From contig CAVVWN010000007.1 of NCBI GenBank assembly GCA_963752045.1, positions 9,978-73,977 on the forward strand: DNA of 64,000 nucleotides, in the 5' to 3' direction. Shown here in pieces: positions 30,181-44,776 of the stretch (positions are counted from its first letter, which is position 1; the number at the start of each line of letters is the position of its first letter). The stretch comes from an uncultured Acidobacteriota bacterium (GTDB taxonomy: Bacteria; Acidobacteriota; Vicinamibacteria; Vicinamibacterales; SCN-69-37). Position numbers and translations under genes: made by a program. The notes under the pieces are model-generated. The model saw only the letters and a list, made by a program, of their open reading frames with translations. It ran no database searches and was not told the origin of the DNA.

Positions 30181-32814
30181 TCAACGCCGGTCGAGCGTTT
30201 GCAGCCAGTTGGTGACGAAGTCGAGCGAGCGCGCACCCGGCTCTTCGCGCACGAACAAGAAGTGCTTCCCGTCCGGGCTCAGGCTGTAATGCGGGATCGA
30301 GAGGTTTGGGCCGAACCGGTACTGCTGGTCGAAGAGCAGTCGCGGCGGCGATAGATTGGGGTCGGGGCCGAGCGCGACGTCGACGGCCATCAGGCGCTGG
30401 CCGTCGCGATAGTAGATGTGGCGGCCGTCCGGACTCCACAGCGGATGCAGGCCGCCGCCCGCCGACACCGAGTACCGTCGATCGGCCTGCGGATACGGCG
30501 AGAGATAGACCTGGGCCTCCCCGCCTTCATCAGACGTGTACACCATCCATCGCCCGTCCGGCGAAAACTGGCCCCCGCCTTCGTAGGCCGGCGTCTCGAA
30601 CAGCGACCGCGGGGCCTCGGTGTTGTCAAGGGGGACGACGTAGATGTCGCCGCTCGTCACGGGCGAGATTCTGATGAACGCCAGCGTACGGCCGTCGGGA
30701 GATACCGATGCCGGAAAGTCACTGGAACCCGTTGCGGCCAAGGCCTGCTCCCCGCCGGTGCCATCCGCCTTGATCATCGCGAGTGTCGTCGTGGATCTGA
30801 AGACGATGTGGTCCGGGCCTGCCCACTGGGCGTAGCCGGCACCGGAGGGTGCCAGTTTCGTCAAGGCGCCGCGCGCGAGGTCGAGCGTCCACAGGCCGTC
30901 ACCGCCGGAAAACACGAGGCGCCGCCCGTCGGGCGAGACGCGCGGGTTGGAGTACTCGCGCGAAGGTCCGATCACTGGCGTCTCCGTGCCGTCGCTGGTC
31001 ACCCAGACCAGCCGACCCAGTGACACGGCACTGCCGGCCGCGATCAGATCACCACTGGCCGACACGCTTGCGGCAAACCCGAGATTGGCCGCGAACGTCA
31101 CATCCTCTCGAACCCGGATCGGCGTCTCGGTGACCTGGCCGTCGCGGAGGCGCGCGGCGTAGAGCGCGCCGTCGCGGGCGAGCACCAGGCGGTCGGGAAA
31201 CGCCGCGATGGCCTGATACGCCTCCGGCAACGCCACGAACTGCCGCCCGGTCGAGAGGTCGACGCCGTGGAGCGCGTCGTGACCGTCCGTGGAGGTGCTG
31301 GTATAGAAGACGAAGGCCGAGTCGGTCGACGCGACCGGCAGCCTGTGCGCGATCTCACCGCGGGCCACGTCGAGCGTGGTCAGCGCCCGCGCATCCCCGC
31401 CGGCGGCCGGTATCGCCCAGAGACTGCCCTCGCGACCAAAGACGATCTGGTCATCTGCGCTCCAGGCCAGTCCTGCAACGAAGTCGGCGCGGGTGGCGAG
31501 CCGTTGAGAGGCGGTGCCGTCGACCGACAGCTTCATGAGGTCGCCCGTATTCGACACCTGGGCCACCTGGGCGCCGTCTGGCGACACGGCCAGCGCGCTG
31601 GTCGACGCACTGCCGGGGACCTCTCTCATCTCCCGATCATCGAGCCGCCGAGTGAAGATCTGGCGTACGCCGGCGCGGACGGCGAAGAAGGCCGCGACGG
31701 ATCCATCAGCCGAGAGCCGCGGCACGCCAAAGAACTCGATGTCCGAGGGCATGTTGAGCGACGCGGCGACCAGCCGCGCGTCGCCGTCGCCGCCTCGATC
31801 CCCGAGCGCCACCGCGAACGCCACGAGGAGCAGTCCGGCCACCGACCAGGAGAGCAGCGGCGATGCGAACCAGCGGCGCGATGACGACCCGGAGGAAGCC
31901 CCCGCGTCTTCCGGCGCCGCCTCGTCGTGTCCGGCAATGACCTCGTCGAGCAGAATGCGCGCTTCGCCGATGTCGCGCAGCCGCTGCCGCGGATCCTTCG
32001 TCAGGCATCGCGAGAGAAGCCGACGTATCGACCTGGGCGTCGCGGGCGGCAGTTGCGCAAGGTCCGGCTCGCGCTCGATCACCTTCGCGAGGACATCCGT
32101 GATGTCGTCGCCGGGGAACGCACGCGTGCCCGTGATCATCTCGTAGAGCACGACGCCGAACGCCCAGACGTCGGCCCGCCGGTCTACGGCCTTGCCGCGC
32201 GCCTGCTCGGGCGGCATGTAGGCGGCCGTGCCCATGATCATCCCGAGCTCGGTGGCGCGCGCCGTGAGGGTCGGGGAATTGGCGACGTGTTGGGCGGACT
32301 GCAGTTCAGTCCGCCCTGCGACTTCAGCCTTGCCCAATCCGAAGTCGAGCAGCTTGGCCTGCCCGTCGGGAGTGACCCGGATGTTGGCCGGCTTGAGGTC
32401 ACGATGGATGATGCCGCGCTCGTGCGCCGCCTCGAGCGCGTCGGCGATCTGCCGGCCGATGGCCCACGCCTCGGCAAACGGCAGCGCGGCGGGTGAAGCG
32501 CCGGCCGGGCGCAGCATCTCTTCGAGCGTCCGGCCCTCGACGAGCTCCATCACGATGACCGGGCCGGCGCCAGACTGCTCGAGGCCGTAGATGGACGCGA
32601 TGTGCGGGTGATTGAGCGACGCGAGCAGCTGCGCTTCGCGCTCGAATCGCGCCAGCCGGTCCGGATCCGACGCCACGATCTCCGGCAGGGACTTGATGGC
32701 GACGTCCCGCCGAAGCCGATCGTCGTGCGCCCGATAGACCTGCCCCATGCCCCCCTCGCCGATGAGAGCGGTCAGCTCGTAGGGGCCGATGCGTGTGCCG
32801 GGCGCGAGACTCAT
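30181..32814 (-). CDS. Ser/Thr protein kinase with TM segment and C-terminal TolB-like beta-propeller
   Basis: 877 aa: GPYELTALIGEGGMGQVYRAHD...VAIK, HRDLKPANI, DFGLGK, AYMPPEQ. Then a TM segment (LLSWSVAGLLLVAFAVAL) and repeated SPDG/propeller blades. Confidence 0.88.
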   Translation of the reverse strand: MSLAPGTRIGPYELTALIGEGGMGQVYRAHDDRLRRDVAIKSLPEIVASDPDRLARFEREAQLLASLNHPHIASIYGLEQSGAGPVIVMELVEGRTLEEMLRPAGASPAALPFAEAWAIGRQIADALEAAHERGIIHRDLKPANIRVTPDGQAKLLDFGLGKAEVAGRTELQSAQHVANSPTLTARATELGMIMGTAAYMPPEQARGKAVDRRADVWAFGVVLYEMITGTRAFPGDDITDVLAKVIEREPDLAQLPPATPRSIRRLLSRCLTKDPRQRLRDIGEARILLDEVIAGHDEAAPEDAGASSGSSSRRWFASPLLSWSVAGLLLVAFAVALGDRGGDGDARLVAASLNMPSDIEFFGVPRLSADGSVAAFFAVRAGVRQIFTRRLDDREMREVPGSASTSALAVSPDGAQVAQVSNTGDLMKLSVDGTASQRLATRADFVAGLAWSADDQIVFGREGSLWAIPAAGGDARALTTLDVARGEIAHRLPVASTDSAFVFYTSTSTDGHDALHGVDLSTGRQFVALPEAYQAIAAFPDRLVLARDGALYAARLRDGQVTETPIRVREDVTFAANLGFAASVSASGDLIAAGSAVSLGRLVWVTSDGTETPVIGPSREYSNPRVSPDGRRLVFSGGDGLWTLDLARGALTKLAPSGAGYAQWAGPDHIVFRSTTTLAMIKADGTGGEQALAATGSSDFPASVSPDGRTLAFIRISPVTSGDIYVVPLDNTEAPRSLFETPAYEGGGQFSPDGRWMVYTSDEGGEAQVYLSPYPQADRRYSVSAGGGLHPLWSPDGRHIYYRDGQRLMAVDVALGPDPNLSPPRLLFDQQYRFGPNLSIPHYSLSPDGKHFLFVREEPGARSLDFVTNWLQTLDRR

Positions 32815-32857: not shown

Positions 32858-32988
32858 AGGGGGACGGGTCTGTTTTCCACAGATTTGCGCAGTTGGGGGC
32901 CAGGTCTCCGTGGGTCTCCGTGGGGCATCTGACCCACGGAGACCTGGCCCCGAACGCGCAAATCTGTGGAAAACAGACCCGTCCCCCT
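32858..32988. repeat. 131-nt near-perfect palindrome (about 58-bp arms) in the divergent region between the two kinase genes
   Basis: AGGGGGACGGGTCTGTTTTCCACAGATTTGCGCAGTTGGGGGCCAGGTCTCCGTGGGTC-loop-GACCCACGGAGACCTGGCCCCGAACGCGCAAATCTGTGGAAAACAGACCCGTCCCCCT. One arm mismatch was seen. It shares the GGGGGACGGGTCT and AGATTTGC modules with the palindrome at 15068-15151. Confidence 0.8.
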
Positions 32989-33022
32989 CTTTCGCGGTAC
33001 CATGCCGGCCTCGGAGGCATGC

Positions 33023-35662
<2,640 letters not shown>

Positions 35663-37248: not shown

Positions 37249-38135
37249 ATGCCTCCTTCCGATCGCGAGCTGGCGGATCTTGCTGCAGCCGTTGCTGACG
37301 GCGCGTCACCAGACTGGGCAGACGCCGAGTCGTCGGCTGCGGACGAGAAGACCCGTACACTCATCGGGCGGCTTCGGACCATCTCCGAGATCGCCCGGGC
37401 GCACGACGCCGACGGCATGCCGTCGGGCGAGCACTCGCCCGTAGACATTCCAGCCGCCGCTCCGGCCGGTTTCAGCGGGAACCCGGGCCAGTGGGGCCCG
37501 TTGCGCATCCTCGAGCACGTGGCCAGCGGCCGCTTTGGCGACGTCTACCGCGCGTTCGATCCGAATCTCGATCGGGACGTCGCGCTCAAGCTGCTGCGCC
37601 ACCGCACGTCCGACCCGGGGTCTGAGGACACGACGCTCGACCTGCGCGCGTGCCGCGCCGCATCACCAACCCACGCCGCATTCACCGGCTGGATCTGGCG
37701 ACGAGGGCCACGTCCGTGGTTTACGACGCTTCACAGGATGGGCCTCTCGGCTCTGATGCATTTGCCGTGTCACCTGACGGGAATGACCTGTTGGTCGTCG
37801 CGCTGCGCAACGAGAATGGACGCGTCGACCACGTGCTGCGCATCGTCCGGTCCGATGGATCGACGCTTGACCGCCACGTGATGGATGTGGATTGTGCCGG
37901 CACGGTTGCGTGGAGTCCGGACGGCGCGCACATCATCGCCACCTGCATGACGTCTCGGGACCGTCCGGTCGTGCTGTGGATGATGCAGGCTGAATCGGGC
38001 GAGCCGACCGAAGTCACGATCGATGTCGAGAACATCACGGACCTTGCGATCCGGCCGGATGGTCGCGCGATTACGTTCACCGCAGGGAATCCGGCACCGG
38101 CGTACTACGCACTGAGCGGAATCCGCTGGAACTGA
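37249..38135 (+). pseudogene. Ser/Thr kinase gene with a large internal deletion (N-terminal extension + kinase subdomains I-II joined out of frame to the last propeller blades)
   Basis: ORF 37249..37881 reads WGPLRILEHVASGRFGDVYRAFDPNLDRDVALKLLR (Gly-loop and VAIK-type Lys) and then degenerates. ORF 37650..38135 reads ...LDLATRATSVVYDAS...FAVSPDGNDLLV...VAWSPDGAHIIAT...LAIRPDGRAITFT (propeller). The catalytic loop, DFG and TM segment are all missing. Total length is about 295 codons, against about 880 in the intact paralogs. Confidence 0.65.
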
Positions 38136-38151: not shown

Positions 38152-38193
38152 CAAAGCAACGCGATCCACGCCATTCTGAACTGGCGCCGCTAG
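38152..38193 (+). pseudogene. Orphan 3'-end fragment of a kinase paralog (QSNAIHAILNWRR-stop)
   Basis: CAAAGCAACGCGATCCACGCCATTCTGAACTGGCGCCGCTAG compared with the end of the 33023..35662 kinase, CAGAGCAACGCGATCCACGCCATTCTCAACTGGCGGCGGTAG. The encoded peptide is identical and the DNA differs at about 4 of 42 nt. Confidence 0.6.
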
Positions 38194-38444
38194 TCTGTCC
38201 GGCGGAGCGCCGCCCGCAGTCTGACCTTGACGGCTTCATCGAAGTCGCCGGCGTACAGACGGTCGAAGATCCGGACCCGCAGCTCGGCCTCCGAGATGTC
38301 GGGCTCGGCGCTGCGTATGCTGGCCGCAATCAGGCGCTTGGCCGACTCGAACATCTCGCTCACCATCCGCAGGCGGTCGATGGGCGCCACCGCGGCGAAC
38401 CGGCGCGCGAAGGCAATCTCCGAGTCGTTGAACGTGTCCTTCAT
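38190..38444 (-). CDS. Small helical protein, probable partner of a nucleotidyltransferase-type (TA-like) pair
   Basis: 84 aa: MKDTFNDSEIAFARRFAAVAPIDRLRMVSEMFESAKRLIAASIRSAEPDISEAELRVRIFDRLYAGDF. The ATG overlaps the stop of the upstream fragment (ATGA at 38441-38444). The long N-terminal extension in the ORF track is not coding. Confidence 0.5.
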   Translation of the reverse strand: MKDTFNDSEIAFARRFAAVAPIDRLRMVSEMFESAKRLIAASIRSAEPDISEAELRVRIFDRLYAGDFDEAVKVRLRAALRRTD

Positions 38445-38741: not shown

Positions 38742-39005
38742 ATGAGCGCTGTTGCCGACGCTTTCTGCGAAACGGGCTTCGCTCGCTTCATCAACCGCCC
38801 AGCGGGCCGCGTCGCACGCATCGTCGCGGGCCTCGCGCTCATCGGCTGGGGTTACGCCCAGGGCGGAGGTGGCCTCGGGCTGGCCCTGCTCGTGGCGGGT
38901 CTCGTTCCGCTCCTGGCCGGCGTGTTCAACTGGTGCCTCATCAGCGCGCTCCTGGGCGGACCGATCAGCGGCGCACTGATCGCCTCGCGCAAGCCGCACG
39001 CCTGA
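38742..39005 (+). CDS. DUF2892 / YgaP-like small membrane protein
   Basis: 87 aa: RVARIVAGLALIGWGY...LALLVAGLVPLLAGVFNWCLISALLG, the characteristic two-helix DUF2892 pattern ending in F.WC. Confidence 0.7.
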   Translation: MSAVADAFCETGFARFINRPAGRVARIVAGLALIGWGYAQGGGGLGLALLVAGLVPLLAGVFNWCLISALLGGPISGALIASRKPHA

Positions 39006-39228
39006 GCGCTGTCGAGACTCGCCGCCGCCGGTGCGGCGAACCGCATGCACGTCGGAAGCGCTCGATTCCAGCCGCGGCAATAGCGGCCCAGCCGCCGCGC
39101 CATCTGGGGTATAAGTGGCGCTGAGGGCTGAAGGTCGCGCCCACGCTCTTCAGGGCGCCGCTCAGGAAAGCACACGCCGTCGCGGCGCCCAGCCGCGCGG
39201 CTGGCTCCCGTCTCAACGGAGGTGGAGC

Positions 39229-39918
39229 ATGCGCCACGTGCCCCGATGGCTGAACGAGCTCGGCAACTCGCCCGATGCCGTCTTTGCCGTCGACGAGACC
39301 CAGCGGATCCTGACCTGGAACCGGGCAGCCGAGAAGGTCTTCGGCCTGCCCGCATCGGACGCGATCGGCCGCTTCTGCTACGACGTCGTCGGGGGGCGGC
39401 TGCGATCCGGCCGTTGCTTCTGTCGTCCCGATTGCCTGGCGCAGCAGACCGTGCGCCGCGGCGACACGTGCCACGCGTTCGAACTGCAGACGCGCAACGC
39501 GCGCGGCGAGCGGTCGTGGGTGGACGTCAGCGTCACGACGCTCTCGACGAGCCGTGGCCCATTGGCCCTGCACACGCTGCGCGTGGATCGGCCGCGCGAT
39601 CGCAGTGAAGACGCCATCGGGGAAATCGTGGAGACGCTGACGGCCCACGGGCTCGTGCCGAAACCGAGCCCGACCGAGGAGGCAGCGCAGGATTCCGGCC
39701 ATTCGAACAGCCAGCCGAACGACCCGCTGGCGGCGCTCAGTCCACGGGAACAGGAAGTGCTGGCCCTGCTGACTCGCGGGTGCTCCACCGAGCAGATTGC
39801 CGGCACGCTCGGCGTGAGCGTGCTGACGGCACGCTGCCACATCCGCAACATGCTGCGCAAAGCGCGCGCGCACAGCCGAACGGAACTGGTGTCTCTGGCG
39901 CTGCGCCCCACCCGCTGA
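39229..39918 (+). CDS. PAS-domain / LuxR-type HTH transcriptional regulator with a Cys-rich insert in the PAS core
   Basis: 229 aa from the ATG at 39229 (GGAGGTGGAG upstream). SPDAVFAVDETQRILTWNRAAEKVFGL (PAS). C-terminal LSPREQEVLALLTRGCSTEQIAGTLGVSVLTARCHIRNMLRK (LuxR/GerE HTH). Cys cluster: RFCYD...GRCFCRPDC...DTCH. Confidence 0.78.
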   Translation: MRHVPRWLNELGNSPDAVFAVDETQRILTWNRAAEKVFGLPASDAIGRFCYDVVGGRLRSGRCFCRPDCLAQQTVRRGDTCHAFELQTRNARGERSWVDVSVTTLSTSRGPLALHTLRVDRPRDRSEDAIGEIVETLTAHGLVPKPSPTEEAAQDSGHSNSQPNDPLAALSPREQEVLALLTRGCSTEQIAGTLGVSVLTARCHIRNMLRKARAHSRTELVSLALRPTR

Positions 39919-39997
39919 GCGCCGACGCAGGCGACGCGCGCGCAGTACCCGCGGCGCCAGACCCCGGTCGTCCACATGGAGGAGAAAATTACTCCAC

Positions 39998-41404
39998 ATG
40001 GGGGATTGCGGGCGCGTCCGGCTGCGCGTCTACTGGACCCCAGTGGGCGACCAGCAGCTTCGGCTCGAGGACGGGTCACGGGTGGCGGTCATCGGCAGCG
40101 GCCCAGCCGGGTCGTTCTTCACCTACTTCCTCCTGCAGATGAGCGGGCGCCTGGGAATGTCGGTGGACGTCGACGTGTACGAACCGCGGACGTTCGCCGT
40201 GCCGGGCCCGCAGGGTTGCAACATGTGCGGCGGCATCATCTCCGAGTCGCTCGTGCAGAACCTCGCCGCGGAGGGCATCGCGCTGCCGCCCACCGTCGTG
40301 CAGCGCGGCATCGACTCCTACGTGCTGCACATGGACGTCGGGTCGGTACGCATCGCCACGCCGCTCGCCGAGATGCGCATCGGCGCCGTGCATCGGGGCG
40401 CCGGGCCGCGCGACGCGACCGAAGCGCGCTGGGAGAGCTTCGACCATCACCTCCAGGCGCTGGCCGTGGGCAACGGCGCCCGCGTCGTGAACGCCCGCGT
40501 CGACGACGTGCTGCGCGAGAACGGCCGGCCGGTCCTCAAGGTGCGCAACGGCGACCCGCAGACCTACGATCTGGTGGTCGTCGCCGCCGGCATCAACTCG
40601 ACCATCCTCAAGGCCTTCGAAGGCCTGGGCATCGGCTACGCCCGCCCGAAGGTGACCAAGACGCTCATCCGCGAGTACTACCTGGGCGGCGACGTGATCA
40701 ACCGGACGCTCGGCACCTCGATGCACGTGTTCCTGCTGAGCATTCCCCGGCTGGAGTTCGCCGCGCTCATCCCGAAGGGCGACTACGTGACGATGTGCCT
40801 GCTCGGGGAAGACATCGACAAGGAGTTGATCGACGCGTTCGTGGCCGCGCCCGAGGTGCGCGCCTGCATGCCCGATGGATGGACGCCGGAGGCCAAGTCC
40901 TGCCAGTGCATGCCGCACATCAACGTGCGCGGCGTCGAGAAGCCCTACGCGGACCGCGTCCTGTTCATCGGCGACGCGGGCGTCACGCGGCTCTACAAGG
41001 ACGGCATCGGCGCCGCCTACCGGACGGCCAAGGCGGCGGCTCGCGCGGCGGTCTTCGGCGGGCTCTCCGAGGACGCCTTCCGCCGTCATTACCACCCGGT
41101 GTGCCGGCGGATTGCCGACGACAACCGCATCGGCCGGGCGGCGTTCCTGTTCACACGGCTCGCGCAGCGCTCCTCGCCCATGCGCCGGGCGGTGCTCGAC
41201 ATGACCGTCCGGGAGCAGGCAGCCCGCGACGGTCGGGGGCGCATGAGCGGCGTGCTCTGGGACCTGTTCTCGGGGAGCGCGCCCTACGCCGACATCTTCA
41301 CGCGCATGCTGCATCCGGCCTTCGTCAGCCGGTTCACGTGGTCGGTCGCCGCCGGCAACCTCCGGCGCGGCGGTGCCCGCTCGCAGGAGTCTCTCCATGA
41401 CTGA
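39998..41404 (+). CDS. FAD/NAD(P)-dependent oxidoreductase (geranylgeranyl-reductase-like fold; specific function unknown)
   Basis: 468 aa: VAVIGSGPAGSFFTYFLL (GxGxxG dinucleotide fold), PQGCNMCGGIISES, FIGDAGVTRLYKDGIGAA. Confidence 0.7.
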   Translation: MGDCGRVRLRVYWTPVGDQQLRLEDGSRVAVIGSGPAGSFFTYFLLQMSGRLGMSVDVDVYEPRTFAVPGPQGCNMCGGIISESLVQNLAAEGIALPPTVVQRGIDSYVLHMDVGSVRIATPLAEMRIGAVHRGAGPRDATEARWESFDHHLQALAVGNGARVVNARVDDVLRENGRPVLKVRNGDPQTYDLVVVAAGINSTILKAFEGLGIGYARPKVTKTLIREYYLGGDVINRTLGTSMHVFLLSIPRLEFAALIPKGDYVTMCLLGEDIDKELIDAFVAAPEVRACMPDGWTPEAKSCQCMPHINVRGVEKPYADRVLFIGDAGVTRLYKDGIGAAYRTAKAAARAAVFGGLSEDAFRRHYHPVCRRIADDNRIGRAAFLFTRLAQRSSPMRRAVLDMTVREQAARDGRGRMSGVLWDLFSGSAPYADIFTRMLHPAFVSRFTWSVAAGNLRRGGARSQESLHD

Positions 41405-41798
41405 AGGCGGGCTCGGCAGGGTCTATCAGGACGGCGAGGTCGTCGTGCGCCAGGGCGACGTCGGCGACTGCCTGTTCGTGGTTCAGGAAGGCCAGGTCGA
41501 CGTGCTCGTCGAGCGCGACGGCAAGACGACGCTGCTACGCACGCTCGGCCCGGGCGAGATGCTGGGCGAGATCGCGATCTTCGAGCGCGTCAAACGGTCC
41601 GCGACCGTGCGGGCCCGGGGATCGGCCCGGCTGCTGACCGTCGACAAGAAGAACTTCCTGCGCCGGATCAACGAGGACCCGTCGATAGCCTTCCGCATCG
41701 TCGAGACGATGTCGCGGCGGATCCGGGAGCTGAGCGCCGAGGTCGTCGAGTTGACCGACCAGGTCGCCGAACACGCCGGCGGCCGCGCCGAGCCGTGA
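41397..41798 (+). CDS. Stand-alone cyclic-nucleotide-binding (CAP/CNB) domain protein, no DNA-binding domain
   Basis: 133 aa: YQDGEVVVRQGDVGDCLFVVQEGQVDVLVE...LGPGEMLGEIAIFERVKRSATVRARGSARLLTVDKKNF (phosphate-binding cassette GE...R.A). Its ATG lies 8 nt inside the end of the upstream gene. Confidence 0.82.
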   Translation: MTEGGLGRVYQDGEVVVRQGDVGDCLFVVQEGQVDVLVERDGKTTLLRTLGPGEMLGEIAIFERVKRSATVRARGSARLLTVDKKNFLRRINEDPSIAFRIVETMSRRIRELSAEVVELTDQVAEHAGGRAEP

Positions 41799-42841
41799 TG
41801 CCCGTTCCCCCGATTCGGTACGTCGCGCCGCCGATCCGAACGGACCGCGCGCCGTGCGTGCTCGTCGCCGGCGCCGGTACGGCCGACGAGTGCCGCCTGC
41901 CCTTCTACAACGAGATCGAGATCGGCCGCGACGACGGACGCCCGGCCGCCCCTGGCGTCGCGCTCGTCGCGGACGCGACGATCTCGCGCCGGCATTGCGT
42001 CGTAGCGCACCGGGGTGATGGCCGCTGCTACGTTCGCGACGTCAGCCGCAACGGCACGCGCCTCGAAGGCCGCCGACTCGTGCCGAACATCGAGATGGAG
42101 TTCTGTTCCGGGCAGCGCCTGTCGCTTTCGGCCGAGCTCGAGCTGATGCTCGAGACCGACGCGGCAGCCACGACCGAGCCGACGGGTCTGGACGAATCCG
42201 AATCGAAAGCGACGGTCGCCATGCCCTCGAGCACGTTTGCCACGCTGCTCGTCGGCGACATCCGCGACTACACGGTGCTCGTGCGGCGGGCGTCCTCCTC
42301 GGACCTGCAGCAGTCGGTCAACCGCGTGTTCGCGGCGCTCAGCCAGGCGGTCGGGCGGCTCGGAGGCACGGTCAAGGAGTACCAAGGTGACGCGGTCGTC
42401 GCCTTCTGGGAAGGCTCGCCCCGAGGCGGGCAGGTCGCAGCGGCCTGCCATGCGGCCCTTGCGCTCGACGGCATCACCGCGCAACTGGCGGCCGACCGCC
42501 GCACCTGGGGACTCACCGAGTTTCCGCTGCAGATGGACTGGGCGCTCGCCACGGGCCCGGTCCTCATCGACTCGATCGGCGGCGCGTCGCCACAAGGTCT
42601 GTCGATGATCGGCGAGGCGATCGTGCTGGCGTTCCGGCTCGAGAAGTTCGCGAATGACAAGGTCGGGCGCATTCTCGCGTGCCGCGTCACGCAGCAGATG
42701 GCGGGCCCGCGATTCCGGTTCCGGGACCTCGGCCTGATGACCGCCAAGGGCTTCGACAAGCCCGACCGCGTGTTCGCGCTCGAGGGGGAACTGCCGGACG
42801 CGGCGGCGGTCGCCTCCCCACGCGCCGCAGGTCTCCCGTGA
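41795..42841 (+). CDS. FHA-domain / class III nucleotidyl cyclase
   Basis: 348 aa. FHA: IEIGRDDG...TISRRHCVVAHRGDGRCYVRDVSRNGTRLEG. Cyclase: ATLLVGDIRDYTVL, VKEYQGDAVVAFW, MIGEAIVLAFRLEKFA. ATGA overlap with the CNB gene. Confidence 0.8.
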   Translation: MMPVPPIRYVAPPIRTDRAPCVLVAGAGTADECRLPFYNEIEIGRDDGRPAAPGVALVADATISRRHCVVAHRGDGRCYVRDVSRNGTRLEGRRLVPNIEMEFCSGQRLSLSAELELMLETDAAATTEPTGLDESESKATVAMPSSTFATLLVGDIRDYTVLVRRASSSDLQQSVNRVFAALSQAVGRLGGTVKEYQGDAVVAFWEGSPRGGQVAAACHAALALDGITAQLAADRRTWGLTEFPLQMDWALATGPVLIDSIGGASPQGLSMIGEAIVLAFRLEKFANDKVGRILACRVTQQMAGPRFRFRDLGLMTAKGFDKPDRVFALEGELPDAAAVASPRAAGLP

Positions 42842-43599
42842 GGGTCCGCATCCTGCCGTCGTCGCCCGACGTCGGCCACCTGCACCACCTGACGACCTTC
42901 GTCGTCGACGGCCACCTCGCGGTCGACGCCGGCTGTCTCGGCCTGTGCGGCACACCGCGCGAGCAGTCGGCCATCACCGACGTCGTGCTCTCGCACAGCC
43001 ATGCCGACCACGTGCTCTCGTTGCCGATGTACGCGATGAACGTCTTCGACGCAACCGAGCGGGGCGTCACCGTGCACGCGCCGCAGCCGGTGATCGACAG
43101 CCTGCGCCGGGACGTCTTCAACTGGCGCGTCTGGCCGGACTTTGCGGCCCTCGGCTGCCCGGACCGTCCGTTCCTCGTGTTCGAGGAGGTAGCCCTGCGC
43201 CAGCCGATCACGTTCGGCAACCTGACGGTCACGCCCATTCCTGTGAACCACCCCGTGCCGACCGTGGGCTACCTGGTCGACGACGGCGCATCGGCGGTCC
43301 TGTTTGCCGTCGACACCGGACCCACCGAGGAGATCTGGCAGGTGGCCGTCGCGAATCCGCGGCTTGCGGCCGCGTTCGTGGACGCGGCGTTCCCCGATCG
43401 GCTGTCCGGCCTCGCCGAGGGCTCGGGCCACCTGACGCCACGGATGCTCGCCGAGCAGGTGGCACGCCTGCCGGAAACGGTCGCGCGCGTGGCCGTGCAC
43501 CTCAAACCGGCGTTCGACGACGAGATCCGCCACGACCTCGATCGCGCGGCGATTCCGAACCTCTCGATTGGCTGCCCCGGACGGGAGTACGACTTCTGA
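42838..43599 (+). CDS. MBL-fold hydrolase resembling class II 3',5'-cyclic-nucleotide phosphodiesterase
   Basis: 253 aa from the GTG at 42838 (GTGA overlap with the cyclase stop): VRILPSS...LTTFVVDGHLAVDAGCLG...VVLSHSHADHVLSLP (HxHxDH), VNHPVPTVGYLV. Confidence 0.65.
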   Translation: MRVRILPSSPDVGHLHHLTTFVVDGHLAVDAGCLGLCGTPREQSAITDVVLSHSHADHVLSLPMYAMNVFDATERGVTVHAPQPVIDSLRRDVFNWRVWPDFAALGCPDRPFLVFEEVALRQPITFGNLTVTPIPVNHPVPTVGYLVDDGASAVLFAVDTGPTEEIWQVAVANPRLAAAFVDAAFPDRLSGLAEGSGHLTPRMLAEQVARLPETVARVAVHLKPAFDDEIRHDLDRAAIPNLSIGCPGREYDF

Positions 43600-43609
43600 G
43601 CCCGCCGGC

Positions 43610-44314
43610 TCATACGGCCGGATGGCCGTCGCAGAGGCGGGCGAACGCCGACTCGCAGTGGGCCTTGAAGCGGTCGAGCGAGTGCGCGGTCACGCGGTTG
43701 TGAATGGACTCCCAGAGCGGGCGGACGGTCCGCGCCCCCAGCCAGTCCCGACGGCCGAAAAAATCGAAGGACACGACGAAGAACATCTGCGTGGCTTCGC
43801 GCTCCCCTTCAGCCGCGATGTTGGACCGGATGTAAATCGAGAAGATGCCCATGGGATAGCCGCCCTCGCACCGGTAGAGCAGGTACCTGGCGTTGTCGAC
43901 GTCAGTCGGCAGCGGCACGGTCTGGCGCCTGATCAGGTCCATCGTGAACAGCGGGATGAAGCTCAGGCCGAGCGCGCGGCCGGGCAGACCGAACGGGAGG
44001 CGGGTCCGGCCGAGCAGGAAGACCTCGACGTGACCGGCCGGCGTTCCCCGGAGGACCCTGGCCAGCGCATTGGGCCAGTAGCCCGCGTCCGGCCGCCACT
44101 GGCCAACCTGGTCGGCGACGAAGGTCGTCGGCGCCTCGATGCCAATGCGATGGATATTGAGCACCGAGTAATCCGCCACGCGGATGCTGAGGCGCTGGAG
44201 GATTCGGTTGTTGTAGTCGTCCCGGTCGGCCGGCGTCCGCAGCGACACGTGCGTTTGCCGCGTCGGCCGCCGAAACACGTAGGTTCTCAGATCAGACCAG
44301 ACGTCCCTCGTCAT
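43610..44314 (-). CDS. Conserved-looking hypothetical protein, no family recognised
   Basis: 234 aa with non-shadow amino-acid composition (YSVLNIHRIGIEAPTTFVADQVGQW, YLLYRCEGGYPMGIFSIYIRSN). Convergent with the phosphodiesterase gene. Confidence 0.5.
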   Translation of the reverse strand: MTRDVWSDLRTYVFRRPTRQTHVSLRTPADRDDYNNRILQRLSIRVADYSVLNIHRIGIEAPTTFVADQVGQWRPDAGYWPNALARVLRGTPAGHVEVFLLGRTRLPFGLPGRALGLSFIPLFTMDLIRRQTVPLPTDVDNARYLLYRCEGGYPMGIFSIYIRSNIAAEGEREATQMFFVVSFDFFGRRDWLGARTVRPLWESIHNRVTAHSLDRFKAHCESAFARLCDGHPAV

Positions 44315-44407
44315 GGATACCCGAGGTGCGCCCGATCATATCGCAGGCGAGAGCCCGTCCGGTACCTTTCCGCTCGAGTGGTGCTATTGTTGGCGAACAC
44401 CAGCCCC

Positions 44408-44776
44408 ATGATCGACCAGCTCTACGAAAAGGTCGGCGGCCGCAAGACGATCAACGAGCTGGTACGTCTTTTCTACGATCGCGTGCTGGCCGACCCGCGC
44501 CTCGCGCCCTTCTTTCCCGACGCGGACATGGAGGGCCTGCGAGCGAAGCAGGTGATGTTCCTGGCCCTGCTGCTCGGGCGCAGCCGGACGTACGCCGGAC
44601 GCGACCTGACGGCGGCCCACGCCGGCGCGCGCGCGCAGGGCCTCACCGACGAGCACTTCGACGCGCTCATCAGCCACTTCGCCGCTTCGCTCGCCGAACT
44701 CGACGTCGACGACGCCTACTCGCGGGAGATCATCGCGCGAATCGAGGCGACGCGCGACGCCGTCCTTGGCCGCTGA
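44408..44776 (+). CDS. glbN: Group I truncated haemoglobin (2-on-2 globin)
   Basis: 122 aa: MIDQLYEKVGGRKTINELVRLFYDRVLADPRLAPFFPDADMEGLRAKQVMFLALLLG...AHAGARAQGLTDEHFDALISHFAASL. Confidence 0.85.
   Translation: MIDQLYEKVGGRKTINELVRLFYDRVLADPRLAPFFPDADMEGLRAKQVMFLALLLGRSRTYAGRDLTAAHAGARAQGLTDEHFDALISHFAASLAELDVDDAYSREIIARIEATRDAVLGR

Follow-up and report, generated by a model that had tools for sequence, protein, structure and literature searches.

Most of what is known about signalling by cyclic mononucleotides in bacteria comes from transcription factors of the CRP type and from a few enzymes that are gated by a cyclic nucleotide-binding (CNB) domain. Two such enzymes, Bdellovibrio Bd1971 (CNB-EAL) and mycobacterial Pat/Rv0998 (CNB-GNAT), respond to cAMP. 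In Xanthomonas campestris the guanylate cyclase XC_0250 is encoded beside XC_0249, a CNB-GGDEF enzyme, and the binding of cGMP raises the activity of the enzyme attached to the CNB domain (PMC3770947). Bdellovibrio DgcB (FHA-GGDEF) features an N-terminal FHA domain in front of a dimeric nucleotide-cyclising domain and is activated by phosphopeptide binding (PMC6733907). The operon described here occupies positions 39998-43599 of a 64,000-nucleotide stretch (the window) of contig CAVVWN010000007.1 from an uncultured Acidobacteriota bacterium. It consists of four open reading frames (ORFs), all on the + strand and overlapping at each junction, which encode an FAD-dependent flavoprotein, a stand-alone CNB protein, a class III cyclase homologue that carries an FHA domain (FHA-cyclase), and a metallo-β-lactamase (MBL)-fold protein that is a candidate phosphodiesterase (PDE). 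We read the operon, with a probability of about 60%, as encoding both a flavoenzyme that would be under the control of a cyclic nucleotide and the enzymes that make and degrade this signal. Redox enzymes switched in this way are probably a class that has not been studied before, and any one nucleotide or substrate can be named with low confidence only.

The operon resembles the XC_0250/XC_0249 pair in that a class III cyclase gene adjoins the gene for an enzyme under the predicted control of a CNB domain. The output of XC_0249 is a diguanylate cyclase, whereas the window operon features an FAD protein with four conserved cysteines, and the operon differs further from the pair in having a separate CNB subunit, an FHA domain on a cyclase that lacks a catalytic Asn, and a dedicated PDE. 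Bd1971 and Pat/Rv0998 likewise have the CNB domain tied to an enzyme and not to a DNA-binding domain, although the catalytic partners differ. The arrangement can also be compared with PKA and PKG: in both cases the CNB module, its phosphate-binding cassette intact, is either a subunit of its own or joined, once or in tandem, to the enzyme that it accompanies. Here the partner is a flavoenzyme and not a kinase, and no inhibitor or pseudosubstrate segment is identifiable. The comparison is one of how the parts may work and not of family membership. Every domain in the operon is known, and the logic of a cyclase encoded beside a CNB-gated enzyme has precedents in XC_0250/XC_0249, Bd1971 and Pat; the novelty is rated as lying in the effector class for cyclic mononucleotides and in the unusual cyclase clade. 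Full-text literature searches found no description of a CNB-regulated flavoenzyme or of the gene cluster of the operon, in agreement with the initial annotation, which was made from the sequence of the window and could not assign the operon to a described system. The NCBI name 'cyclic nucleotide-binding domain-containing thioredoxin-disulfide reductase' belongs to a different flavoprotein fusion, and we know of no functional study of a CNB-containing thioredoxin-disulfide reductase fusion.

The conserved unit at this locus is the flavoprotein plus the CNB protein, not the four-gene set. The flavoprotein gene (39998..41404, +, 468 aa) is followed by the gene for the stand-alone CNB protein (41397..41798, +, 133 aa), which matches PF00027 with E = 1.5e-23 and 83 bits, compared to a cut-off of 27.5. 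The phosphate-binding cassette of the CNB protein is intact (G57-E58...R67-S68-A69-T70, nt 41565-41606), with both the ribose-contacting Glu and the phosphate-contacting Arg-Ser in place, and is followed by a long C-terminal helix. The best single-domain matches in the PDB are the CNB domain of Bd1971 (6e-15), CRP-family proteins and the SthK CNBD, and the NCBIfam Pat model matches the protein at 9e-12. A scan of metagenome contigs that was anchored on the flavoprotein, and unbiased as to the other genes, gave 80 loci, and the CNB gene lies directly after the flavoprotein gene in 67 of the 69 loci with room for it. The two proteins form one uninterrupted in-frame ORF in 17 of 103 loci. A query with one of these fusions returned at least 120 top protein matches, every one of which has a CNB domain. 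The fusions are 570-600 aa long with one CNB domain or 710-780 aa long with two in tandem, the latter mirroring the two-CNB layout of the PKA R subunits, and the source records name them only as 'flavin-dependent dehydrogenase' or 'cyclic nucleotide-binding domain-containing protein'. The window CNB protein is 47-57% identical to the CNB part of the fusions, and 30 fusion proteins all keep the Glu and the Arg-Ser-Ala-Thr of the cassette. By the Rosetta-stone argument, these natural fusions are evidence of a physical partnership between the small CNB protein and the flavoprotein, of which the CNB protein is proposed to be the regulatory subunit. It had been suggested at the outset that the CNB protein regulates either the flavoenzyme or the cyclase by direct contact, and the part of this suggestion that concerns the flavoenzyme is strongly backed by the fusions.

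The flavoprotein is a PHBH/GGR-fold FAD enzyme (GGR, geranylgeranyl reductase) and is proposed to be the regulated output of the operon. It features a GxGxxG motif at residues 33-38 and two cysteine motifs, C74-N-M-C77-G-G (nt 40217-40234) and C302-Q-C304 (nt 40901-40909), both of which are invariant in relatives; the first is the CNMCGG motif that had already been picked out in the window. The Pfam matches are to DAO and NAD_binding_9 and are weak. The nearest NCBIfam model, TIGR02032 (GG-red-SF, the geranylgeranyl-reductase superfamily), gives 54.1 bits against a cut-off of 158.8, which places the protein outside that family, and the flavoprotein is treated as belonging to a family that appears related to but separate from the geranylgeranyl reductases. 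Searches of the PDB with the flavoprotein sequence and with the family profile found no significant relative. An AlphaFold2 (AF2) model of the flavoprotein has a pLDDT of 84 and a pTM of 0.86, and Foldseek matches this model to KMO, halogenases, FixC of EtfABCX (7koe_C), squalene epoxidase and PHBH at TM-scores of ~0.6 with no clear winner, so that the overall fold is that of the GGR/FixC/PHBH-fold group A flavoproteins. The Cys-Gly-Gly of the flavoprotein presumably sits where GGR has its flavin-proximal Cys. The extra Cys, which makes a CxxC, and the invariant CxCxP set the family apart from the GGR/FixC/PHBH enzymes.

The hallmarks of the flavoprotein family that reach distant relatives are GxGxxG, G-C-N-x-C-[AG]-G, C-x-C-x-P and GD...RLYKDGIG. 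Since the CxxC-type and CxC motifs are both kept in these distant relatives, the family is described by four invariant cysteines. The flavoprotein-CNB family is defined here by the hallmark motifs together with a CNB domain that is either fused or encoded immediately downstream, and the window flavoprotein belongs to it because it carries all of the hallmark motifs and its stop is overlapped by the CNB gene. An exhaustive search of representatives found 325 clusters of flavoproteins (50% identity) at E<=1e-30 and 742 at E<=1e-10. The flavoprotein-CNB family accounts for hundreds of such 50%-identity clusters, in lineages that include Acidobacteriota, Gemmatimonadota, Eisenbacteria, Myxococcota and Desulfobacterota-type bacteria. 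Identity of the flavoprotein is 63-80% among the 120 top matches and 55-80% across several phyla, in stable chromosomal order. More distant four-cysteine flavoproteins (P0376-P0404, ~860-930 aa, as well as P0452, P0439, P0431 and P0454) have variant architectures, which comprise a tandem duplication, a fusion to NDH-2 (Pyr_redox_2 + NDH2_C), a fusion to a Pyr_redox_2 module, and an N-terminal DUF7530 domain with 4-6 transmembrane (TM) segments. These fusions and the genes found beside other family members speak for a redox enzyme that is functional and may act at the membrane; the NDH-2 and membrane-domain fusions, together with GltD-like neighbours, hint at a membrane quinone/isoprenoid reductase or at an Fe-S/dithiol-relay reductase. 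The invariant four-cysteine motif and the absence of a sequence-detectable solved relative make the family a structural gap. At one locus (L165, 10184-16944, -) a heterodisulfide-reductase-like cluster adjoins a two-CNB flavoprotein fusion. This cluster, seen once, contains HdrA-like, FlpD/MvhD, CCG-domain, ferredoxin and DHODB-type Fe-S proteins, with an NDH-2 gene at the left end of the locus, and is a possible redox-partner context for the fusion.

The third gene (41798..42841, +, 347 aa, or 348 aa from a GTG start at 41795) encodes the FHA-cyclase. The FHA domain (~nt 41918-42103) matches with E = 6.7e-9 and 36.5 bits against a cut-off of 20.7, and its phosphothreonine-binding residues, G43-R44, S63-x-x-H66 and N85-G86, are all canonical and invariant in the family. 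The cyclase-homology domain (~nt 42236-42787) is homologous to class III cyclases: a phmmer search of the PDB matches residues 149-328 to Pseudomonas aeruginosa CyaB (3r5g, 4.3e-13) and Synechocystis Cya2 (2w01, 4.8e-12). The catalytic residues were assigned from residue-level alignments to CyaB and Cya2, a family alignment of 26 members and an outgroup comparison. The metal-binding Asp residues D154 and D198 align with those of CyaB and Cya2 and are invariant in the 26 family members, and R280, the Arg of the transition-state pair, is kept and invariant. The pair is incomplete, as the transition-state-stabilising Asn is replaced by V276. Class III cyclases select ATP with Lys and Asp or Thr at the two base-contacting positions, and GTP with Glu and Cys, Ser or Gly. 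At the first base-selecting position E194 aligns with Lys of CyaB and Glu of the guanylate cyclase Cya2, and at the second S269 aligns with Thr of CyaB and Gly of Cya2; both base-contacting positions are invariant across phyla. The Glu/Ser pair appears guanylate cyclase-like and not adenylate cyclase-like, and the product is not readable from sequence; Glu194 and Ser269 suggest GTP or another non-adenine substrate, and the change of Asn to Val suggests low basal or otherwise altered catalysis. The Asn is kept in more distant FHA-cyclases from Myxococcota, Longimicrobiales, Desulfosarcina and Gammaproteobacteria, which indicates that its loss in this clade is derived and was then conserved. The initial annotation had named this protein as the class III cyclase that writes the signal, which stands as far as homology is concerned; the protein is not a standard cyclase, with Val in place of the catalytic Asn and Glu/Ser instead of Lys/Asp. 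The whole cyclase clade has thus swapped a textbook catalytic residue with the rest of the active site conserved.

The FHA-cyclase resembles DgcB in that an N-terminal FHA domain, a phosphopeptide sensor in DgcB, lies directly upstream of the cyclising domain. The two proteins differ in that DgcB has the GGDEF fold and makes cyclic di-GMP, whereas the window protein has the class III cyclase fold and would make a mononucleotide. Ahead of the FHA domain, residues 6-13 (nt ~41813-41836) form a conserved motif of the type RY[T/V]xPP, in which the window protein has Val where many homologues have Thr. The FHA ligand of DgcB is the protein's own phosphorylated N-terminal tail (PMC6733907), and a likeness between this tail and the motif of the FHA-cyclase is speculative.

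The fourth gene (42838..43599, +, 253 aa) encodes the MBL-fold protein. Its Pfam matches are Lactamase_B_2 (2e-15) and PDEase_II (PF02112; 3.8e-9, 36.5 bits against a cut-off of 23.7), the latter being partial and covering profile positions 82-147 only. The metal motif H53-x-H55-x-D57-H58 (nt 42994-43011) is invariant in the family, as are F94-N95, W99-P100 and H198-x-T200-P201 within G-H198-L-T-P. The HxHxDH, FNDxxWPD and GHLxP motifs are common to yeast PDE1, other class II PDEs and the window protein, which is ~100 residues shorter than yeast PDE1. A profile built from 11 homologues has yeast class II PDE1 as its best PDB match (4ojv; 170 residues, E = 1.9e-14), with further significant matches to RNase Z and PhnP and a weak one to Apyc1 (7u2r). 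Both the motifs and the scores are those of class II PDEs, and the MBL protein is a candidate cyclic-mononucleotide phosphodiesterase of the class II type, as had been proposed. The domain calls made earlier for the other three proteins hold as well.

The cyclase and the PDE are linked to the flavoprotein and CNB genes recurrently and not in every locus. A second scan, anchored on the FHA-cyclase in species-representative genomes, gave 80 loci, in which the window proteins were compared by tblastn. The order flavoprotein, CNB, FHA-cyclase is found in 30 of these 80 species-level loci from at least five phyla, so that the gene order is conserved outside of this genome. A lack of such conservation had been named beforehand as one finding that would refute the initial annotation, and on this point the annotation stands. 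The ordered loci come from Acidobacteriota, Eisenbacteria/Eiseniibacteriota, Myxococcota, Krumholzibacteriia and unclassified lineages, while Gemmatimonadota have a permuted arrangement with the FHA-cyclase gene first, followed by those for the flavoprotein, the CNB protein and a GltD-like protein. The closest relative among the fetched loci is from an Acidobacteria soil metagenome-assembled genome (L004), with a flavoprotein that is 79% identical and the same four-gene order. In the flavoprotein-anchored metagenome loci, the FHA-cyclase follows the CNB gene in 22 of 51. In 55 of these metagenome loci the flanks are 3 kb or longer (mean 7.1 kb), and all of their ORFs were searched with hidden Markov models for cyclases and PDEs; a class III cyclase ORF was found within ~7 kb in 33 of the 55, in at least three architectures. 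One alternative to the FHA-cyclase is a ~1040-aa protein of double zinc ribbon, cyclase, AAA_16 and TPR domains with a canonical GDAVNLAARME motif; in six loci its gene directly follows the CNB gene or lies upstream in divergent orientation. Further large ORFs with a cyclase domain were found near the flavoprotein and CNB genes. At locus L164 a fused flavoprotein-CNB gene is accompanied by a convergent MBL gene, an FHA-cyclase gene, a DUF2867 protein gene and then a Ser/Thr kinase-TPR gene, and the FHA-cyclase there has the canonical Lys/Thr/Asn/Arg residues. Different lineages have thus brought different cyclases, and sometimes a PDE, to one flavoprotein-CNB unit.

The PDE is rare. An MBL/PDE-family ORF is present in 7 of the 55 metagenome loci, all seven of which also have a cyclase, and follows the cyclase in 8 of the 80 species loci. 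The initial annotation had envisaged a reader, a writer and an eraser in fixed stoichiometry; this does not hold, as the core is the flavoprotein and the CNB protein, with an FHA-cyclase, whose place other cyclases can take, in about half of the loci and a PDE in few. More frequent than the PDE is a protein of ~490 aa with a short-chain dehydrogenase/reductase (SDR, NmrA-like) domain and DUF2867, or a lone DUF2867 protein (31 of 166 loci; L021 9007-10440, L027/L036 9046-10464, L103 8861-10318, L140 862-2361 and L164 11560-12090, among others). The SDR and DUF2867 gene usually lies immediately after the FHA-cyclase gene, which is the slot of the PDE gene in the window. A GltD-like protein with Fer4_20 and Pyr_redox_2 domains is encoded in nine loci. 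Neither the SDR and DUF2867 gene nor the GltD-like gene was found in the window.

In the mechanism proposed here, the flavoprotein and the CNB protein would form a two-subunit enzyme that is a single polypeptide in many other bacteria. The CNB protein may act like a PKA-type regulatory subunit or domain, or like the CNB domain of XC_0249, and the signal would presumably run from the binding of a 3',5'-cyclic nucleotide, through an altered contact between the CNB protein and the flavoprotein, to a switch in redox activity. The nucleotide, which may be cGMP-like, would be made locally by the FHA-cyclase, whose dimeric cyclase domain, by analogy with the FHA-gated DgcB, would be turned on when the FHA domain binds a phosphothreonine from a Ser/Thr kinase. 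The class II-type MBL phosphodiesterase would remove the signal. The scheme builds on the domain identities, the intact ligand and metal residues, the obligate linkage and fusion of flavoprotein and CNB, and the recurrent linkage of cyclases and PDEs, all of which are read directly from the sequences. If it is true, the flavoenzyme-CNB unit links cAMP/cGMP-type messengers directly to redox metabolism, possibly that of membrane quinones or lipids, in phyla that abound in soils and sediments and whose biochemistry has hardly been studied. The locus also provides a compact testable chain, from kinase to FHA-cyclase, cyclic mononucleotide, CNB-flavoenzyme and PDE, for which the natural fusions ease the biochemistry. 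A more far-reaching version, which we put at somewhat less than even odds, is that the flavoprotein-CNB pair is the founding example of widespread bacterial redox enzymes that are switched directly by a cyclic mononucleotide, that the messenger comes from the Asn-less, Glu/Ser FHA-cyclase, coupling Ser/Thr phosphorylation to cGMP or a non-canonical cyclic nucleotide, and that the four-cysteine site by the flavin is a new Fe-S or dithiol relay absent from the solved GGR/PHBH-fold enzymes.

Several observations weigh against a cyclic nucleotide-gated flavoenzyme with its own signalling enzymes. The Foldseek matches of the flavoprotein are generic to the PHBH fold, have similar scores and point to no particular substrate. 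An AF2 model of a natural flavoprotein-CNB fusion (pLDDT 70, pTM 0.73) places the CNB domain with low confidence and predicts no interface. Of 68 species loci, only 8 have a kinase domain at 1.5 kb or less from the FHA-cyclase, and 20 have one anywhere in the flanks. The match of the cyclase domain to Guanylate_cyc (PF00211), with E = 1.8e-3 and 18.3 bits, is below the gathering score of 21.9, and the transition-state Asn is Val or Ile in essentially the whole clade sampled, whether adjacent to a flavoprotein or not, so that the predicted cyclase may be weak or inactive. Of the 55 metagenome loci with flanks of 3 kb or more, 22 have no nearby cyclase. The last three observations, together with the Asn kept by the outgroup FHA-cyclases, are also what speaks for the alternative that this clade of FHA-cyclases consists of pseudo-cyclases with no or very little catalytic activity. 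Such a protein would regulate by binding nucleotides or by serving as a scaffold, perhaps one that connects a phosphorylated partner with the flavoprotein complex, and the CNB protein would answer to the product of other cyclases. We regard this alternative as unlikely. Across phyla there is no variation in the metal-binding Asp pair, the Arg or the two base-contacting positions, and a dead site would not be expected to stay so constant. The PDE is found only where there is also a cyclase, as is expected of a pair that makes and breaks a signal locally, and canonical cyclases occupy the same slot at other loci.

A second alternative reverses the direction of the signal, with the flavoprotein-CNB pair as a sensor and not an output. 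The four-cysteine flavoprotein would report a redox state (NAD(P)H, quinone or thiol) and, with the CNB protein, feed back on the cyclase or the PDE, making the operon a transducer from redox state to cyclic mononucleotide with its effectors elsewhere. The operon does lack a DNA-binding or other classical output domain, the invariant CxxC and CxC next to the flavin would suit a dithiol or an Fe-S centre that senses redox state, and a PAS-LuxR regulator and a truncated haemoglobin are encoded nearby in the window. A CNB protein with an intact cassette, however, receives a cyclic mononucleotide and does not send one, and the flavoprotein-CNB unit persists and becomes fused independently of an adjacent cyclase. 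The fusions of relatives to NDH-2, Pyr_redox_2 and membrane domains, and the GltD-like and SDR-type neighbours, point to a working enzyme, and the PAS-LuxR gene is not conserved beside the module; a sensor is accordingly judged improbable, a step below the pseudo-cyclase. A Pycsar-like anti-phage system, in which infection would trigger a cyclic (pyrimidine) nucleotide, the CNB-linked flavoenzyme would be the effector of abortive infection and the MBL protein a housekeeping or anti-toxic degrader, is very improbable and was rejected as the main explanation: the PADLOC domain-level matches of the cyclase to PycC (4e-9) and of the CNB protein to PycTIR/effector CNB regions (8e-14), and the weak matches to Apyc1 (an Anti-Pycsar Apyc1 Pfam match of the MBL homologue in L001 and the profile match to 7u2r), would fit it, but PADLOC matches of this kind are generic and to be expected from every class III cyclase and CNB domain, and PADLOC matches neither the flavoprotein nor the MBL protein. 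In a Pycsar effector the CNB domain is joined to a killing domain (TIR or TM), whereas the CNB protein here has no effector domain and the module lacks TIR, TM and other killing domains. The FHA domain speaks for kinase signalling, and the conservation of the flavoprotein across phyla is housekeeping-like and unlike that of patchy defence islands.

The four overlapping genes are real. The G+C content of the window is ~69%, and the G+C content at third codon positions is 0.88-0.94 in the four operon frames versus 0.75-0.81 in the long antisense ORFs, which identifies the + strand ORFs as the coding frames. Public gene calls record all four products, with the same starts, on one contig. At the first junction (41397..41404, +, ATGACTGA) the flavoprotein stop overlaps the CNB start by 8 nt; relatives have an overlap of 4, 8 or 11 nt here, or a short gap, or have the two genes fused in frame. 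The second junction (41795..41800, +) reads GTGATG and not ATGA at 41795-41798, as had been stated, with the CNB stop TGA at 41796-41798. The FHA-cyclase could start either at GTG 41795, with a 4-nt GTGA overlap, or at ATG 41798, with one base in common with the CNB stop, and the ATG is favoured by the N-termini of homologues (MPxxP) and by the public gene call. At the third junction (42838..42841, +, GTGA) the FHA-cyclase stop overlaps the PDE start by 4 nt; the GTG start of the PDE is supported by homologues that begin with M[RK][IV]RILPS, and the -4 overlap also occurs in loci L004, L012, L055 and L069. The tight coupling of the four genes noted earlier, with its overlaps of 8 nt and GTGA at the outer junctions, is thereby confirmed. 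A promoter and terminator scan of 38900-44500 found no promoter-like site and one terminator-like site, which is within chance expectation, and Rfam and tRNA scans found nothing relevant to the operon.

A PAS-LuxR (GerE) regulator is encoded 79 bp upstream of the flavoprotein gene (39115..39918, +), where the initial annotation had placed it, and no homologue lies beside any of the 83 related loci examined. The regulator was rejected as a member of the module on the grounds that it is not conserved at related loci, and is treated as local context only. Just upstream of it are a small Rv0078B-related antitoxin-like ORF (38190-38444, -; below the Pfam cut-off) and a YgaP-like transmembrane protein gene (38742-39005, +). 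The Ser/Thr kinases reported within 10 kb are present as two intact genes and one frame-broken copy, which lie 4-10 kb upstream of the operon. The intact kinase-PD40 genes are divergent (30181-32814, -, and 32966-35662, +), with Pkinase E-values of 2e-47 and 1e-50 for the pair. In the third copy (37249-38135, +) the kinase N-terminus (ORF 37249-37881) and the PD40/beta-propeller region (ORF 37650-38135) are in different frames, and a single-frame translation has four stop codons; it is probably a paralogue of the two intact genes that has undergone a frameshift or is decaying. The window kinases are candidate inputs to the FHA domain. Kinase enrichment near FHA-cyclases is modest and clearest in Anaeromyxobacter-type loci, in which a kinase gene starts 156-254 bp downstream, and because the enrichment is no more than modest the step from kinase to FHA domain is kept as an inference only; like the PAS-LuxR gene, the kinases are mostly local context. 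Inside the + strand kinase ORF, ARAGORN calls a tRNA-Ser(GCT) at 35037-35126 (-), which is probably a false positive since the Rfam tRNA model does not report it. Downstream of the operon, a convergent 234-aa gene without a Pfam match (43610-44314, -) separates it from a gene for a group-I-type truncated haemoglobin (44408-44776, +; Bac_globin, E = 2e-20), which begins ~0.8 kb from the end of the operon. A different globin-like ORF lies near the FHA-cyclases of four other loci.

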